Shown: positions 15,251 through 29,662 of the stretch, one piece after another | Layout: every line of letters starts with the position of its first letter | How positions within the stretch are numbered: the stretch's first letter is position 1 | NCBI GenBank assembly: GCA_963764165.1 | Contig: CAVXRD010000002.1 | Location: forward strand, 544,001-608,000 | Source: an uncultured Verrucomicrobiae bacterium | GTDB taxonomy: Bacteria > Verrucomicrobiota > Verrucomicrobiia > Limisphaerales > Palsa-1400 | Direction: 5' to 3' | DNA: 64,000 nucleotides | Made by a program: the position numbers and the translations under genes | The notes under the pieces: model-generated | Database searches by the model: none | Told to the model about the DNA's origin: nothing | The model's input: only the letters and a program-made list of their open reading frames with translations

Positions 15251-15700
15251 CTAACTGGGGGCAGCGAGTCGGTTTCGCGCTCGCTTAATCGTTGCGTTAT
15301 ATCTGGAGAGAATAACAGTCTGCGCAATCCGCACGGGGTTCTTAAGCGAGTGCTCCCATATTCGGATAACGCGCCAGCCGCGTTTCCGGAGAATTTTGCC
15401 CACCGCCACATCGCGCGCTTTATTCCTGCGAATTTTTGGAAGCCAATACTCCTTTCGGCTCCCAGGCATCCGGCCATGCCAGCGGCAGCCGTGCCAGAAA
15501 CAGCCATCCACGAAGACCGCCATGCGCTCTTTCGGGAATACAAAATCGGGCCGTCCGGGAACACGCTGATTCCGGCGCCATCCCGTAATGCCGCTGGCTC
15601 TGAAAATGGCGGCCAGCTTCACTTCCGTGCTTTTGTTGTTGGTCGACCTAATGGCCGCCATCACGCGCGACCGCTTCTCCACTGTGAACACATCTGGCAC
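15251..15700 (-). CDS. vsr: Very-short-patch repair endonuclease
   Basis: DVFTVEKRSRVMAAIRS, PGRPDFVF, FVDGCFWHGC, GWRVIRIWEH; GTG start at 15700. Confidence 0.9.
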   Translation of the reverse strand: MPDVFTVEKRSRVMAAIRSTNNKSTEVKLAAIFRASGITGWRRNQRVPGRPDFVFPKERMAVFVDGCFWHGCRWHGRMPGSRKEYWLPKIRRNKARDVAVGKILRKRGWRVIRIWEHSLKNPVRIAQTVILSRYNATIKRARNRLAAPS

Positions 15701-16073
15701 GGAAAGATGTTTACACCACCTCCCGGCCGCATAAAACCGGAAAGAACCCCAATTATTGGCAAGGGCACAAATCAGATTTTGCAAACTGATTTTCGCCCCT
15801 CCATGCCGTCGGCTCAGATTTTGTTTGCTTGGATTTGATTCGCTCCTGCGACAAATGCTCCTCAACAAAGGACTCCCCGGAAGGTGGTTAATCAACTTTC
15901 AAACCAGGCCAGACAGCGCTGGCACACCGTGGCATCGGCTCGGCGCAGCGAGCCGGCCCGGCCAAAAGCTGCTGTCCGCCCTGTTGGCGAATTTGGGCGG
16001 GGCAGGCTCATGTTTTTGAGCCATGCCCCACTAAATCGTGCAAAAATGCATTTTTTTGTGAAAAAAGCGGCCA

Positions 16074-16119
16074 AAAAACCTCTGGTAGGTTTTCTGTTTG
16101 CCTCCGCGCCTGCCAAAGT
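16074..16119 (+). promoter_or_regulatory. Dyad AAAACCT-N5-AGGTTTT plus TG-extended -10-like element upstream of the phage-like operon
   Basis: AAAAACCTCTGGTAGGTTTTCTG-N14-TGCCAAAGT; second copy at 29617-29662. Confidence 0.65.
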
Positions 16120-16196: not shown

Positions 16197-16403
16197 ATGA
16201 AGAAAAAATTCGCGTCTATCCTCGCTGCGGCGGCGTTCGCCACCGCGGGCTGCAAAAATCCACTCGCCATTTCGGGCGACTACGCCACGCCAAAACAAAC
16301 GATCAGCGGCGGCGTCACAACAACCACCAACAGCGTCATTGTGACGGGTGGATACTCAACAACCAATCAAACCATCGGCGGTTCCGTCACCGTTGGAAAA
16401 TAG
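16197..16403 (+). CDS. Small lipoprotein
   Basis: MKKKFASILAAAAFATAGC lipobox-like; Thr/Gly-rich beta strands. Confidence 0.75.
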   Translation: MKKKFASILAAAAFATAGCKNPLAISGDYATPKQTISGGVTTTTNSVIVTGGYSTTNQTIGGSVTVGK

Positions 16404-16412
16404 GAAAACGAT

Positions 16413-16778
16413 ATGCGAAAACTATTATTCCAAGCCTTGTTGCCAAGTTCCTTGTTTCTCCAGGCTTGCGCTTGTCCGCACCGCAAGGCGGTTTCGTCGC
16501 ATGAGGTCGAGACCTACGCCGGGCGCGTGGACGGATTGGTCCGCCGCGAAACCTGGCGCGATTCCGAACAGGGGGGCGGGCAATTCGTCTTCACCGATCC
16601 ATCGGCGGCGCAACTGTTCGCCTCGCACACCAACCAATCGGCCCTCGGCGGCGGCTCCGTCTTCAGCGCGGGCGCGGTCGCCGTCGCGGTCGACACCAAC
16701 ACGCCGGCCATCATCGGCGCAGCGGGAACGGCAGTCGGAAATGTCATCGGCGCGGCGGCCAAGACCTCTGTCAAATAG
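16413..16778 (+). CDS. Probable lipoprotein with hydrophobic Gly/Ala C-terminal helix
   Basis: MRKLLFQALLPSSLFLQACAC; C-terminal IIGAAGTAVGNVIGAAAK. Confidence 0.7.
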   Translation: MRKLLFQALLPSSLFLQACACPHRKAVSSHEVETYAGRVDGLVRRETWRDSEQGGGQFVFTDPSAAQLFASHTNQSALGGGSVFSAGAVAVAVDTNTPAIIGAAGTAVGNVIGAAAKTSVK

Positions 16779-16782
16779 ATCC

Positions 16783-17592
16783 ATGAATACCCCATCCCCC
16801 AATCAATTCGATCCCCACAACGCCCGCGCGCTGTGTCTCGCCAGCGCTGAGGCTTATAATGCTGACGCGACTCCTCCCGAATCTTCCCTGCGATGCGAGG
16901 CCGCGGACACTCATGTTTGCATCCAGCGCCGCACCTCTTTCTCCGAGAGCGACGGCGGCGAAATGACCATCGCGTTTCGCGGCACCGCCGATTGGCGCAA
17001 CGCCCTGACCGATATGGATTGCAAGCTCATCCACGCCGGCGGCTATCGCGTCCACCGCGGTTTCCACCAGGCCGTCGAAGCCATCGACGCCAGCCTCACG
17101 GCTGCGCTGGGCGACGTTTCGGGCATGCGCCTGTGGGTCACCGGGCATTCCCTCGGCGGCGCGCTGGCGGAATTGTGGGCGCTGCGCGCGCTCGAGCGCG
17201 GCCATGACATAGCTGGAGTTTACACCTTCGGCCAGCCGCGCGTGGGCGATGCCGCGTTCGCCGCCTATTACGATTCACTGCTCAAGCCGCGCACATTCCG
17301 CGTCGTTCACGGCGACGATGTCGTCCCGCGAATTCCGTGGCTCCTCGCCAAGTATCGCCATGCCGGGAACGAAATCTTTTACCCCCGCGCCTCTTCGGCG
17401 GCATGGATCGCAAATTGTTCGTGGTGGCGGAAATTAATGTTTGACGTTGCGGCGGTCACCGGGGACTTGCGGGCAGGCCGCATCGGAGCATTGGACAGCC
17501 ATCACATCAGCAACTATCTCGCGCTCTTTTTCGAAACAGCGCCGTCCCGAACCTCAAACCGCTCCAACTCAAATTCCCATGATATTCTCTGA
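16783..17592 (+). CDS. Lipase class 3 family protein
   Basis: IAFRGT, VHRGF, VTGHSLGGALA nucleophile elbow, YTFGQPRVGD, DVVPRIP, C-terminal HHISNY; ATG at 16783. Confidence 0.9.
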   Translation: MNTPSPNQFDPHNARALCLASAEAYNADATPPESSLRCEAADTHVCIQRRTSFSESDGGEMTIAFRGTADWRNALTDMDCKLIHAGGYRVHRGFHQAVEAIDASLTAALGDVSGMRLWVTGHSLGGALAELWALRALERGHDIAGVYTFGQPRVGDAAFAAYYDSLLKPRTFRVVHGDDVVPRIPWLLAKYRHAGNEIFYPRASSAAWIANCSWWRKLMFDVAAVTGDLRAGRIGALDSHHISNYLALFFETAPSRTSNRSNSNSHDIL

Positions 17593-18004
17593 CATCTCCA
17601 ACGCTGAACTCGGCGCGTGGGTTTACGCCCTCGCGACCGTCATCCAAATCGTGAGCACCATCGCGATTCTCATCACCATTAATTCCAAGCAAAAACGGGA
17701 AATCAGTTTTGCGGGGGAAACAGTGGAGCGGAAGGAATTCGACAAGCATGTGGCCGAGAATTCCCTCGTTCACCAGCAGCTCTTTGCCAAAATCGGCGGC
17801 GTCGAGCGTGGGCTGGAATCGCGCCTCGCTTCCCGCATGGACAAATTCGAAACCGAAAGCGAGGACTCCCGCCGTTTGTTTCATCGCGACATCAGCGCCA
17901 TCGGCAACGACGTCGCCGCCCTCAAGAAGGAAGCCGAATTGGCCAACCAGCGTTCGCTCCAGATGGACGCGAAGATCGACCGCCTCATTGAACGCCCGAA
18001 ATAG
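17579..18004 (+). CDS. N-terminal TM + coiled-coil protein (Mu gp25-like / lysis-cassette type)
   Basis: One TM (AWVYALATVIQIVSTIAILITI) then heptad-rich helix ending MDAKIDRLIER; position before gp26/gp27/terminase. Confidence 0.6.
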   Translation: MIFSDISNAELGAWVYALATVIQIVSTIAILITINSKQKREISFAGETVERKEFDKHVAENSLVHQQLFAKIGGVERGLESRLASRMDKFETESEDSRRLFHRDISAIGNDVAALKKEAELANQRSLQMDAKIDRLIERPK

Positions 18005-18016
18005 AAGAATCCCACC

Positions 18017-18289
18017 ATGATACCCACCGACAAAATCGAACTCTTCGACAACGCCCTGCTGAAAATTCTCGAGGCCAACAATACGCCTTGGGGTTTGCAA
18101 TCGGCGGCCTTGTGCATGTTTGCCCGCGAATTTGGTTTCGCGCCCTCCGCGCCGGAAGCCGTCCCGCGCCTTGAGTATTTGACAGCCAAAGGAATGGCGC
18201 AGGAAGTTTCCAAGCAATTGAGCAAGGCCAATCGCGCCTGGAAAATCACGGACGCCGGACGCCGCTACCTCGACGAACAAGGACTCTGA
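18017..18289 (+). CDS. Small winged-helix protein (Mu gp26-like)
   Basis: RLEYLTAKGM...WKITDAGRRYL wHTH tail; synteny with the terminase genes. Confidence 0.6.
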   Translation: MIPTDKIELFDNALLKILEANNTPWGLQSAALCMFAREFGFAPSAPEAVPRLEYLTAKGMAQEVSKQLSKANRAWKITDAGRRYLDEQGL

Positions 18290-18294
18290 ACCAT

Positions 18295-18771
18295 ATGAGA
18301 ACCAACGACGAACTATCAGCCCTCAACGCCCTGCCCGCGCCGCAGCAACAGGAAATTCTCGAATTTCTGGAGGGTGGCGAGAATAAACCGGGGCGCTCCG
18401 CCGGCGAATGCGCCGAATGGCTTGCGGAGCGCGGCATCGCTGCAAACGTCGAAGCCATCCAGCGTTGGCAAACGCGGCAACTGCATCGCATTCGCATGGA
18501 ATGGTGCGAATCGATGACCGCCATCGCAATTGAAGACGCCCGCCGCCCGAACCACGTTTATTCAGACGAGGAGCTGCTGAGCATCGGCATCCGCCTTTTC
18601 AACGCGCTCGTCGTAAAAACGTGCCGGCACGAAAACCTCACACGAAATCAAACCGCGGAAATCCGGCGGCAAGCAATGATCCGCCTCGAGCACGAACTCG
18701 TCACGGAACTGGAGAAGTTCGCCGCAGCCAATTCTCATTCATCCCCTCCCTCCCATCCCTCGCATCTATGA
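18295..18771 (+). CDS. Mu gp27/DUF3486-like putative small terminase
   Basis: SALNALPAPQQQEILEFL...ECAEWLAERGI...AIQRW HTH pattern; ATGA-coupled to the terminase gene. Confidence 0.65.
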   Translation: MRTNDELSALNALPAPQQQEILEFLEGGENKPGRSAGECAEWLAERGIAANVEAIQRWQTRQLHRIRMEWCESMTAIAIEDARRPNHVYSDEELLSIGIRLFNALVVKTCRHENLTRNQTAEIRRQAMIRLEHELVTELEKFAAANSHSSPPSHPSHL

Positions 18772-20279
18772 ACGATTCACCACCGCCACCCGCCCCCAAT
18801 ATTCTGGATCGCACTTTTGCCGCCCCCGGAGCGGAGCTTCTGCCTTACCAAAAAGACTGGGCCAATGACTCATCGCGATGGAAATTTGGCCTGATGTCCC
18901 GCCAAGTCGGAAAGGACTTTGCCGCGGGCTTCGAAGGCGTCCGCGATTGCGTGGAGGCCGAGCTGGCCGGAAGAAAAGTGACATGGCTGATCGCCGCGCC
19001 CTCGGAACGGCAATCGCTCGAATCGTTGAACAAATGGAAAAATTGGGCCGAATCCTTTCACCTCGCGCTGGAAGGCGAAGAAATCGAACGTGCCGATGGC
19101 TCAGAGAGCCTGCTCTCGTCCGCCAGCATCACGTTTCCCAACGGCAGCCGCGTCATCGCCGTCCCCGGCCAGCCGGACACCGTGCGGGGATTCAGCGCCA
19201 ACATATTATTGACAGAATTCGCTTTCTTCGAGCGGCCTGAAGCCACCTGGCGGGCCATCCTTCCGAGCATCACCAATTCCAAAAGTGGCGGCGTCAAGAA
19301 AGTCCGCCTCATCACCACTCCCAACGGACTCGGCAACAAGGCGCATGACCTGTGGATCAAAAATTATCGCCCGCCCGGAAATTCTGCAACGGAATCGCGC
19401 GGTCAAACTGCTGCGCCGCCGGGCGCGAGTTCCCTTCTCCCATCGCCGATGTGGAAGTGCCATTTTGTTGACATACACAAGGCCGTCGCGCAGGGATTGC
19501 GGGCGGATATTGAGGAATTGAGGGCGGCGCTGGACGACCCGGAAGGCTGGTCGCAGGAATTTGAGTGCCAGTTCCTCGACGTCCAATCCGTCCTGCTCCC
19601 CTACGAACTCATCGCGACTTGCGAAAGCGCGGAAGCCACCGTCACCGCGCCGTTGGACTTCTGGCAAGCCGCCGCCGGGAGCCCGCTCGCGATGGGAATT
19701 GATTTCGGCCGCCGGCGGGACTTGACCGTCGCGTGGACACTCGCGCGCGTGGGCGACGTCTGGCAGACAATTGAAGTCCTGGTGCTCGACCAAACTCCCA
19801 CCGATCAGCAGGTGGAGATTTTGCGCCCGCGCATCCGCCGTTGCGGGCGCGTTTGCGTGGATTACACCGGGCCGGGCGTGGGTTTTGGCGATTACCTGGT
19901 GAAGGAATTCCACGAATTCAACCCGGCCCAGCACACGTTCGGCAAAATCGAGCCATGCACCTTTTCGCAAAACCTGAAAGTCGACATCTTCAGCAAATTG
20001 CGCATGGCCTTCGAGCATCGGGAATTGCGCGTGCCCGTCAACCGGGACATCCGCGAAGATTTGCATTCCCTCAGCCGCGTGAGCAATCCCAACGGCCAAA
20101 TCACCTACCGCGCCTCGCACACCGCCGACGGCCACGCCGACCGCGCCACCGCGCTGGCCCTGGCCCTTCGCGCGACAGGCGGCGGCGTCGGACAATCCGC
20201 TGCCGAATCCATCCCCCGCCCTCCCAATCCGCGAGATCTGGCCATGGCATCGGGCAATCGCAGCCGGTGGACATTATGA
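18768..20279 (+). CDS. Phage terminase large subunit (Mu gp28-like)
   Basis: LLPYQ, SRQVGKD, TVRGFSANILLTEFAF, ITTPNG, QEFECQF, GIDFGRRRD, VDYTGPG, GHADRATALAL. Confidence 0.9.
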   Translation: MNDSPPPPAPNILDRTFAAPGAELLPYQKDWANDSSRWKFGLMSRQVGKDFAAGFEGVRDCVEAELAGRKVTWLIAAPSERQSLESLNKWKNWAESFHLALEGEEIERADGSESLLSSASITFPNGSRVIAVPGQPDTVRGFSANILLTEFAFFERPEATWRAILPSITNSKSGGVKKVRLITTPNGLGNKAHDLWIKNYRPPGNSATESRGQTAAPPGASSLLPSPMWKCHFVDIHKAVAQGLRADIEELRAALDDPEGWSQEFECQFLDVQSVLLPYELIATCESAEATVTAPLDFWQAAAGSPLAMGIDFGRRRDLTVAWTLARVGDVWQTIEVLVLDQTPTDQQVEILRPRIRRCGRVCVDYTGPGVGFGDYLVKEFHEFNPAQHTFGKIEPCTFSQNLKVDIFSKLRMAFEHRELRVPVNRDIREDLHSLSRVSNPNGQITYRASHTADGHADRATALALALRATGGGVGQSAAESIPRPPNPRDLAMASGNRSRWTL

Positions 20280-20284
20280 ATGCC

Positions 20285-20629
20285 TCATCTGTTTTTGACG
20301 CCCCGTTTTCGGGCTGTCGCCGAGGCTTTGCGGCCAAGAATTGCCCCAACGTCTCGCGCGCCGTGCAAAACCCGGACAATCTCGACAGGGCGGCGCTTGC
20401 GCCTGTAAATAATCAAGTAACGCCTTACAAGCCAGAACTGCAGAGGTTCGTCCGCCAGGTCACCCCGCGAATGGCCAATCCCGGGCGTCGTGGCCAACTT
20501 GTTAAAAGCCTCGAAGATATCATCCCGCACGCGGTCAGCGGCATCAGGATTCTGCAATTCGATGGCATAATAATCCCAGATCTCGTCCAAATCGCCGCTT
20601 GCGGCGGGCGAAATAAGGAAGTCACTCAT
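20285..20629 (-). CDS. ParE/RelE-family toxin
   Basis: ISPAASGDLDEIWDY, PGIGHSR, YLIIYR, VEIVRVLHGARD. Confidence 0.9.
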   Translation of the reverse strand: MSDFLISPAASGDLDEIWDYYAIELQNPDAADRVRDDIFEAFNKLATTPGIGHSRGDLADEPLQFWLVRRYLIIYRRKRRPVEIVRVLHGARDVGAILGRKASATARKRGVKNR

Positions 20630-20892
20630 CGCTTGCGCGCGCGAAATTGGGCGCTCCGTTTCTTCATGCGCGCGTAAACCTGCTCACCACTGATGCCCTC
20701 ACCACGATCTAGTTCATTGAGGCCGGCCCGGATCTTTTTTCGCGCTTCATCCAAGTGCAGGGCTCGCAGATGATCTTGGTCCTCCAAGAGCCGCAGCCCT
20801 TCACGGATGACTTCGCTGGCAGATTGGTAGAGGCCGCTTTGCACCTTCCGGTTTACAAGCTGCTCCAATTCGGGAGTTAACGAAACATTCAT
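20626..20892 (-). CDS. ParD-family ribbon-helix-helix antitoxin
   Basis: MNVSLTPELEQLV...SGLYQSASEVIREGLRLL; 4-bp overlap with the toxin gene. Confidence 0.9.
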   Translation of the reverse strand: MNVSLTPELEQLVNRKVQSGLYQSASEVIREGLRLLEDQDHLRALHLDEARKKIRAGLNELDRGEGISGEQVYARMKKRSAQFRARKR

Positions 20893-29552: not shown

Positions 29553-29616
29553 GCGACCCGTTCCGTTGGCGTTATTCGTTTCAATTTTTCCCAATATTTC
29601 TTCAGAAATCGCGCTG

Positions 29617-29662
29617 AAAAACCTCTGGCAGGTTTTCTGATTTCATTTCCATGTGCCACACT
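29617..29662 (+). promoter_or_regulatory. Second copy of the dyad + extended -10-like motif
   Basis: AAAAACCTCTGGCAGGTTTTCTG-N14-TGCCACACT; 22/23 identical to 16074-16096. Confidence 0.6.

Follow-up and report, generated by a model that had tools for sequence, protein, structure and literature searches.

How does an uninterrupted lysis and DNA-packaging module of Mu-like phage type come to lie among host genes? The module in question occupies positions 16197 to 20279 of the 64,000 nucleotides analysed here (the window), a part of contig CAVXRD010000002.1 (C2 below; C1, C3 and C4 are further contigs) from an uncultured Verrucomicrobiae bacterium of the Limisphaerales (Palsa-1400). The genome, G000, comprises 7.0 Mb and is 97% complete. 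We read the module as the lysis and packaging operon of a domesticated system of several loci that resembles a gene transfer agent (GTA) and derives from a B3/Mu-like transposable phage. Domestication and common regulation of the loci are very probable; the complete reading, with a gene-transferring particle as the product, is the one we favour and hold to be reasonably probable.

Composition of the module

The module consists of seven open reading frames (ORFs), all on one strand, none interrupted and tightly packed, with successive gaps of 9, 4, -14, 12, 5 and -4 nt. The coordinates of the original prediction, which had reported gaps of 12 bp or less or overlaps, were confirmed.

16197..16403, plus strand: ORF1, 68 aa, small lipoprotein, possibly an accessory of envelope lysis
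16413..16778, plus strand: ORF2, 121 aa, lipoprotein with a hydrophobic glycine-rich C-terminal helix (alignment of 14 homologues, hydropathy)
16783..17592, plus strand: ORF3, 269 aa, class-3 lipase with a GHSLG motif, PF01764 (Lipase_3) E 4e-30
17579..18004, plus strand: ORF4, 141 aa, one N-terminal transmembrane helix and a coiled coil, Mu gp25 (releasin)-like
18017..18289, plus strand: ORF5, 90 aa, winged-helix protein, Mu gp26-like
18295..18771, plus strand: ORF6, 158 aa, probable small terminase (TerS), without the C-terminal tail found in most orthologues
18768..20279, plus strand: ORF7, 503 aa, large terminase (TerL), FluMu gp28-like, Terminase_6N/6C, phrog_2 TerL E 2e-34

The two lipoproteins, the lipase and the large terminase had been named correctly from the letters, as judged by the lipoboxes and the profile matches listed. 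The same is true of the transmembrane protein, for which hydropathy shows a single N-terminal hydrophobic helix in ORF4, and of the small winged-helix protein, since ORF5 matches ORF29 of phage B3. The label of a DUF3486-like helix-turn-helix protein for ORF6 found weak support: there were no Pfam matches across 16/16 aligned members of its family, and the viral DUF3486 model gave E 0.19. The neighbours had been given as vsr and parDE, and both flanks were recovered (Vsr at 15251-15895, ParE/ParD at 20285-20892). They are local additions, being absent beside the examined module loci of relatives. As predicted, the window contains no portal. The sole Mu-type portal match of the genome lies on another contig (C1:1270390-1271835), and the proteins of a separate, apparently complete transposable prophage on contig C4 (317700-351900) match the window inside the module only.

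Distribution of the system over four loci

In G000 the system comprises four distant loci, each among host genes and none with a transposase. In addition to the module these are:

C1:1257311-1271835, 14.5 kb: portal-head-tail operon with portal, protease, capsid candidate, gp36 adaptor, tube candidate and tail-tip genes, without terminase
C2:2144485-2146139, adjoining ftsQAZ: repressor/Gam locus, with an XRE repressor gene and, transcribed away from it, a short operon whose last gene is Mu Gam
C1:1228980-1230372, adjoining ilvE-mcsA-mcsB-clpC: candidate activator locus, with divergent genes for a tandem winged-helix protein (152 aa) and an XRE-type protein

The four loci sum to about 21.7 kb. 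They lie 27 kb to more than 1.5 Mb apart or on separate contigs, so that one headful would probably not hold all of them. The portal heads the 14.5-kb operon, and the 351-aa capsid candidate was identified by its position and its aligned homologues; its profile gave one match in the PDB, 3bjq at E 0.33. No sheath was recognised in this operon. Between adaptor and tail, related IMG/VR phages have additional genes, and they also have a tape measure; the C1 operon lacks both. At the repressor/Gam locus Gam is preceded by a 131-aa protein that could at best be a remnant of MuB (hhalign E 0.1). In front of that protein lies an ORF without a gene call, about 76 aa long (C2:2145450-2145690, minus strand), which several relatives conserve.

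The MuA, gpG and tape-measure profiles matched in the C4 prophage alone, and the gpF profile matched nowhere in the genome; the four loci are without MuA, full MuB, gpF, gpG and a full tape measure. MuA and MuB, which the original prediction had proposed to seek, are thus present in the C4 prophage (as MuA/MuB-like genes, with a tape-measure candidate at the far end) and absent from the four loci, save for the possible MuB remnant. Two other genes sought on its proposal, the gpT capsid gene and a Mor/C activator gene (PF08765), had no match in the genome. Since the complete C4 prophage also lacks PF08765, phages of this group presumably use another late activator. The head of this prophage is non-Mu (HK97-like, as we read it). 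Between the C1 operon and the C4 prophage, identity is 61-86% in the tail-tip genes and 27-41% in those of neck and tube, a pattern suggestive of recent tail-tip exchange.

Conservation of the split arrangement

For comparison we used G000 and 30 other genomes of the family (31 in all), with genera labelled g1 to g10. Portal and capsid were found in single copy in 11 of the 30 other genomes, that is in 11 of the 12 belonging to g1, g3, g5 and g8; the twelfth, G002, has neither. Ten of the 11 carriers show a capsid identity of 83-92%, and in 10 of the 11 the portal operon begins after host genes with the gene order kept. A lysis-TerL module with no portal behind it is present in G001, G004, G006, G019 and G025; in G003, G008, G017 and G022 the module is cut off by contig ends, and a search of G011 did not recover it. 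Gam is kept in at least four genomes of the split group. The tail tube was detected in 14/18 genomes of the family; elsewhere in the order it was detected in 11/382 genomes, at 29-45% identity. The MuA of the C4 prophage had a full-length match in only 1/31 genomes (G000 itself) and partial matches in five.

Outside the split group, the clusters of g10 and g7 are contiguous and combine the same lysis and tail genes with other heads, with no MuA in the stretches read; G012 (g9) has lysis/tail genes with another head on two contigs. The contiguous clusters without transposase are L163 and L167 in g7 and L043, L051 and L053 in g10; both g7 clusters share their flanks, with an RND efflux gene upstream. 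In unsplit relatives a central repressor of B3 type is found, and early genes diverge from it.

Inheritance and selection

The RpoB tree recovers g1, g3, g8, g10 and g7. The trees of TerL, portal, tube and capsid all recover g1, those of portal and tube additionally g8 with the internal pairs of RpoB, and the candidate activator is likewise congruent with RpoB at the genus level. Congruence was judged by eye at this level, and the head of G014 and the contig L327 are exceptions. Transposase-bearing phage contigs branch outside the clade, as do all IMG/VR matches. We conclude that the system was inherited mostly vertically.

A survey of 169 TerL loci from three collections gave a consistent picture. 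Among loci of at least 61% identity the portal was adjacent in 13/60 and MuA present in 0/31; at 60% identity or less the values were 68/70 and 21/47. These counts include some duplicates and are not independent, the 61% cut was set after the data had been seen, and loci with less than 1.5 kb downstream or, for the MuA count, less than 7 kb upstream were dropped.

Compared with G000, the ratio of nonsynonymous to synonymous substitutions (dN/dS) amounted to 0.10-0.29 for TerL, 0.07-0.23 for the portal, 0.05-0.09 for the capsid (0.41 in G014) and 0.04-0.05 for RpoB, with dS near saturation. Individual ORFs were also compared with a 90%-identical metagenome contig, for which dS is unsaturated (0.27-0.61). 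The ratios were 0.20 for ORF1 (31 codons), 0.11 for ORF2, 0.16 for ORF3, 0.06 for ORF4, 0.13 for ORF5, 0.19 for ORF6 and 0.14 for ORF7. All seven ORFs of the module are under purifying selection.

The original prediction had offered, as one of two readings, a split locus retained by the host, and most of the checks it proposed support this reading: portal, head and tail genes were found in the rest of the genome, on C1, the split is conserved across relatives, terminase and species trees agree at the genus level, and dN/dS indicates purifying selection.

A palindromic motif and a candidate activator

Two copies of a motif that had been overlooked in the original prediction lie in the window:

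16061..16119, plus strand: late-promoter-like motif with the palindrome AAAACCT-N5-AGGTTTT (16075-16093), about 80 nt before ORF1
29604..29642, plus strand: second copy, aimed at a pstS-like gene (29847)

The first copy includes a non-canonical extended -10-like box (16111-16119) and is probably a promoter; it may also be a packaging site. The same motif precedes the portal operon on C1. In nine genomes the region upstream of the lysis genes had its best or equal-best match in the portal-upstream region of its own genome (9/9 rows and 8/9 columns of the comparison), with own-genome scores of 31-48 of 50 and scores of 24-29 for 60 random upstream pairs. The motif thus differs between genomes while matching within each. 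A single palindrome built in the same way stands ahead of the lysis genes in the C4 prophage, which points to a phage origin of the motif.

The number of matches was 2 in G019 (exactly both operons), 3 in G025, 22 in G006, 81 in G008 and 60 in G000, counted with patterns and thresholds that differ between genomes (up to 9 mismatches in 39 were allowed in G000). As a signature of this system only, the motif holds in G019 and is ruled out in G000 by its 60 copies. A known RNA was likewise rejected, as there was no Rfam match between 15800 and 21400. Of the copies in G000, 59/60 are directed into a gene of the same orientation, where the background is 54-60% (p ~2e-12). For G008 a sample of 27 copies was inspected by eye, and among the copies for which a downstream gene had been called, roughly two thirds are directed into it in this way. 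Around 58 dispersed copies in G000 stand before host genes, for example at window position 29604, C2:2310189, C2:2293931 and C3:640750, and the genes behind such copies include, by reading of their sequences, gyrB-, dnaK-, rpsL-, lysS-, dnaX-, smc- and lepA-like genes. Short 10-nt tandem repeats follow 28/60 copies.

The 152-aa tandem winged-helix protein is the best candidate for an activator. It is homologous to an early gene of related phages, and its family occurs in 24/31 genomes, at the ilvE-mcsA site in 8; it was not found in G002, g2, g4, g6 or the 64%-complete G029. The family diverges fast (39-54%) and along genus lines. For the candidate itself PHROG gave weak excisionase matches only, and there was no match in the PDB.

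The terminase genes

In ORF7 all three aspartate motifs of the nuclease are intact. Walker A reads GKD in 22/22 clade members and Walker B reads TE in 21 (SE in one), compared with DE in the outgroups of that alignment. The Walker B aspartate is described as strictly conserved in the available part of PMC5737356, and the swap of Walker A and B residues was not met in that part. The GKD/TE pair as the mark of a dead motor is ruled out, as it occurs in 118/120 top terminase homologues and also in the transposase-bearing phage contigs L235, L239 and L241. Because MuA-bearing phages have it, we read the pair as an inherited, functional reciprocal swap. This swap spans a broad group of Verrucomicrobiota phage terminases. 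The titled records of the closest terminases are from Verrucomicrobiota, some of them Limisphaerales, with two under other labels, and the best named phage matches of the system are Mu/B3-like at 30-35%.

ORF6 evolves fast (about 30% identity to congeners). Its best fold match in the PDB is the G20C small terminase (Z 6.8, root-mean-square deviation 1.4 over 50 residues), and besides the DUF3486 model it matches Mu gp27 (E 0.06) and B3 TerS (E 0.01) weakly. Its position before TerL and the weak fold match make it a probable small terminase. A family of solo TerS-like genes exists in addition, with G000 members at C1:1236191 and C2:1192459 and at least six more matches; two lie directly behind the late motif. 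Solo TerL copies in several relatives (L045-L049, L054, L055) have arisen inside the domesticated clade, one of them behind a copy of the early promoter.

Proposed function and alternatives

A Mu-type motor already packages DNA from the chromosome. Under the favoured reading the tandem winged-helix protein would, on induction, bind the palindrome and switch on both late operons. TerS and TerL would then fill proheads from the host chromosome, the element itself presumably being unable to replicate or to be packaged whole. The lipoproteins, the lipase and the releasin-like protein would free short-tailed particles, which would inject host DNA into kin, and Gam would shield the DNA ends. We infer gene transfer because a conserved portal, capsid and motor in a system that does not replicate leave host DNA as the substrate.

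Several observations weigh against this reading. A tape-measure homologue for the split system was not found in G000, and relatives have only short tape measures of about 190-300 aa. The module contains no recognisable endolysin, that of G001 is without lipase, and the role of the activator is based on co-occurrence only. The RpoB tree unites the four genera with weak support (66/96). No TerL match was obtained in G011, G002 retains tail-tip genes only, which indicates loss in a congener, and G014 holds a divergent, contiguous version. Heads and terminases are of different types in g7, g9 and g10 (head replacement); together with the G014 version this points to exchange of modules with phages. 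Lesions occur as well, though any of them could be a sequencing error: the capsid gene carries 1-nt indels in both G004 and G019, G019 also has its tube gene broken by a stop and its lipase gene by a frameshift, and in G011 the protease gene is interrupted. Finally, two signs of an ordinary decaying prophage named in the original prediction were each seen in part. Variable sites apply to the lysis module, whose neighbours differ between genera. Nesting among prophages applies to a single phage-like metagenome contig, L327, which falls within the g1 terminase clade yet is contiguous with phage-like accessory genes, so that exchange with phages appears to be ongoing; the transposase-bearing phages lie outside.

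Bacillus PBSX is a DNA-filled killing particle, and the main rival explanation is that the same loci and the same switch yield a domesticated particle of this kind, a decoy, or DNA release by lysis, with no useful delivery of DNA. The genomic evidence of domestication fits this explanation equally well; the missing tape measure in G000 and the contrast between tail-tip and neck/tube identity to the prophage, suggestive of receptor swapping, speak for it. A tail-only weapon needs none of the conserved portal, protease, capsid and intact-motif terminase, though, and the failure to recognise a sheath and the retention of Gam in the split group also count against it. We consider it unlikely.

Distinctly less probable is an anti-phage or helper-dependent element that makes nothing alone, its repressors, terminases and capsid genes interfering with, or being complemented by, related transposable phages. 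Such an element would agree with the two retained XRE loci, the recurrence of solo TerS-like and TerL copies in several genomes and the exchange of modules with phages, and the same-design palindrome of the resident prophage makes cross-activation conceivable. Against it, most carriers show no such helper, at least with the C4 MuA as query, and a near-complete head-tail-lysis set exceeds the needs of interference.

An ordinary decaying or rearranged prophage without present function, to which the varying module neighbours, the lesions in G004, G011 and G019 and the loss in G002 would be owed, is the least probable and already largely refuted by the ORF-level ratios (0.06-0.20), the retention across genera with synonymous sites near saturation and the matched promoter-like motifs at separated loci.

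Within the GTA-like reading a wider version is tentative: a family-wide GTA that arose independently in soil Verrucomicrobiota, in which activator and late promoter co-evolve by species and the promoter has, in several species, spread to tens of sites before host genes, among them gyrB-, dnaK-, rpsL- and dnaX-like genes in G000. If true, the host's transcription would be rewired on induction too, or packaging would be started at many points of the chromosome.

Comparison with known systems

According to the available part of PMC9662315, GTAs have caudoviricete-derived proteins, form caudovirion-like particles, package mostly random host DNA and deliver it to other cells; they are fully endogenised, often at several loci, cannot fully package their own genome and are inherited mostly vertically. 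In the present system TerL, the Mu portal, the Mu protease, gp36 and a tail spike are caudoviricete-derived; the genomic half of endogenisation is seen in the four loci among host genes without transposase, and vertical inheritance in the genus-level congruence with RpoB of TerL, portal, tube, capsid and candidate activator. Phage-derived genes at several loci, vertical inheritance, purifying selection and tail-tip exchange with phages are shared with RcGTA (PMC5026251, in part). Endogenised head, tail, packaging and lysis genes are likewise found in RcGTA, CcGTA, BaGTA and BhGTA/VSH-1 (PMC9662315, same part), though here from genes alone, and a separate activator locus in CcGTA, where it encodes GafYZ (10.1101/2023.11.12.565669, in part) and here only a candidate. 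Unlike known GTAs, the system has a FluMu gp28-like terminase split from a Mu-type portal, a Verrucomicrobiota host and, in some species, a late-promoter-like motif spread over the genome; the difference from RcGTA, BaGTA and BhGTA is judged from the nearest named phages, which are Mu/B3-like.

The late order of lysis genes, gp25-like, gp26-like, TerS, TerL, portal, protease, capsid and gp36 is that of Mu, Pseudomonas phage B3 and their Verrucomicrobiota relatives (IMG/VR L156-L162 and L235-L243; the C4 prophage). Gam, the palindromic late motif and, in unsplit relatives, the B3-like repressor with divergent early genes are further features of this group. From the gp25-gp26-TerS-TerL cassette of Mu, the gp26-like protein and TerL are matched, gp25 and TerS weakly. 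An active Mu/B3 prophage differs in that no MuA/MuB lies within the element here (MuA in 0/31 clade loci with at least 7 kb upstream), ParE/ParD follows TerL, the portal is on C1, and the loci are scattered, single-copy and host-tracking. Mu itself differs in its Mor/C family protein, absent from this genome, and a tailocin would not retain portal, protease, capsid and TerL under selection.

Putative mobile promoters, described in the available part of PMC3575422 as highly similar upstream sequences before unrelated genes of one genome, resemble the motif copies of G000. The motif differs in its source, apparently a phage-derived late promoter (not mentioned in that part), and in its copy number of 2 to 81 between relatives.

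Alphaproteobacteria, a sulfate reducer, a methanogen and a spirochete are the hosts of those functional GTAs that the available part of PMC9662315 lists. The literature listings and abstract beginnings covered, which do not extend to subscription papers, held no description of a GTA from Verrucomicrobiota or derived from Mu, and the main text of PMC13626063 (supplements aside) contains neither 'Verruco' nor 'Mu-like'. A Mu/B3-derived GTA of Verrucomicrobiota would, if real, add another independent case of domestication, from a group that is abundant in soil and peat. The family holds a complete prophage, contiguous transposase-less clusters, split loci and loss side by side, and since these stages are preserved together the route from prophage to GTA is open to testing. 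The system also supplies a named candidate switch with a putative binding site, and it offers a case in which the origin of a mobile promoter can be traced.

Lysis genes and minor observations

The Gly-Cys lipobox of ORF1 is invariant in 12/12 aligned homologues, and a Gly/Ala-Cys lipobox is kept in the orthologues of both ORF1 and ORF2. A paralogue of ORF1 is present in the lysis region of the C4 prophage. ORF2 is spanin-like in its architecture; its AlphaFold model is unreliable (pLDDT 50) and too poor for a fold search. The ORF3 lipase is a candidate lytic enzyme, and because related phages carry a lipase in the same slot we call the module a lysis module. For ORF4 the hhalign comparisons with Mu gp25 and B3 ORF28 were not significant, and the Atlas feature search gave the DUF2730 releasin cluster at rank 19 (score 0.91, 171 shared features). 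Mu gp25 is a single-helix protein with an N-out/C-in topology in the available part of PMC9239132, so that topology and this one match give weak support for a releasin-like ORF4. ORF5 matched B3 ORF29, whose annotation likens it to Mu gp26, with 82.7% in hhalign (E 1e-5) and Mu gp26 itself with 8.7%. In the tail, L076, L081 and L086, which belong to three genomes of three genera, have the 849-aa tail-tip gene divided close to residue 305, and this recurrence suggests a tolerated fission and not random decay.

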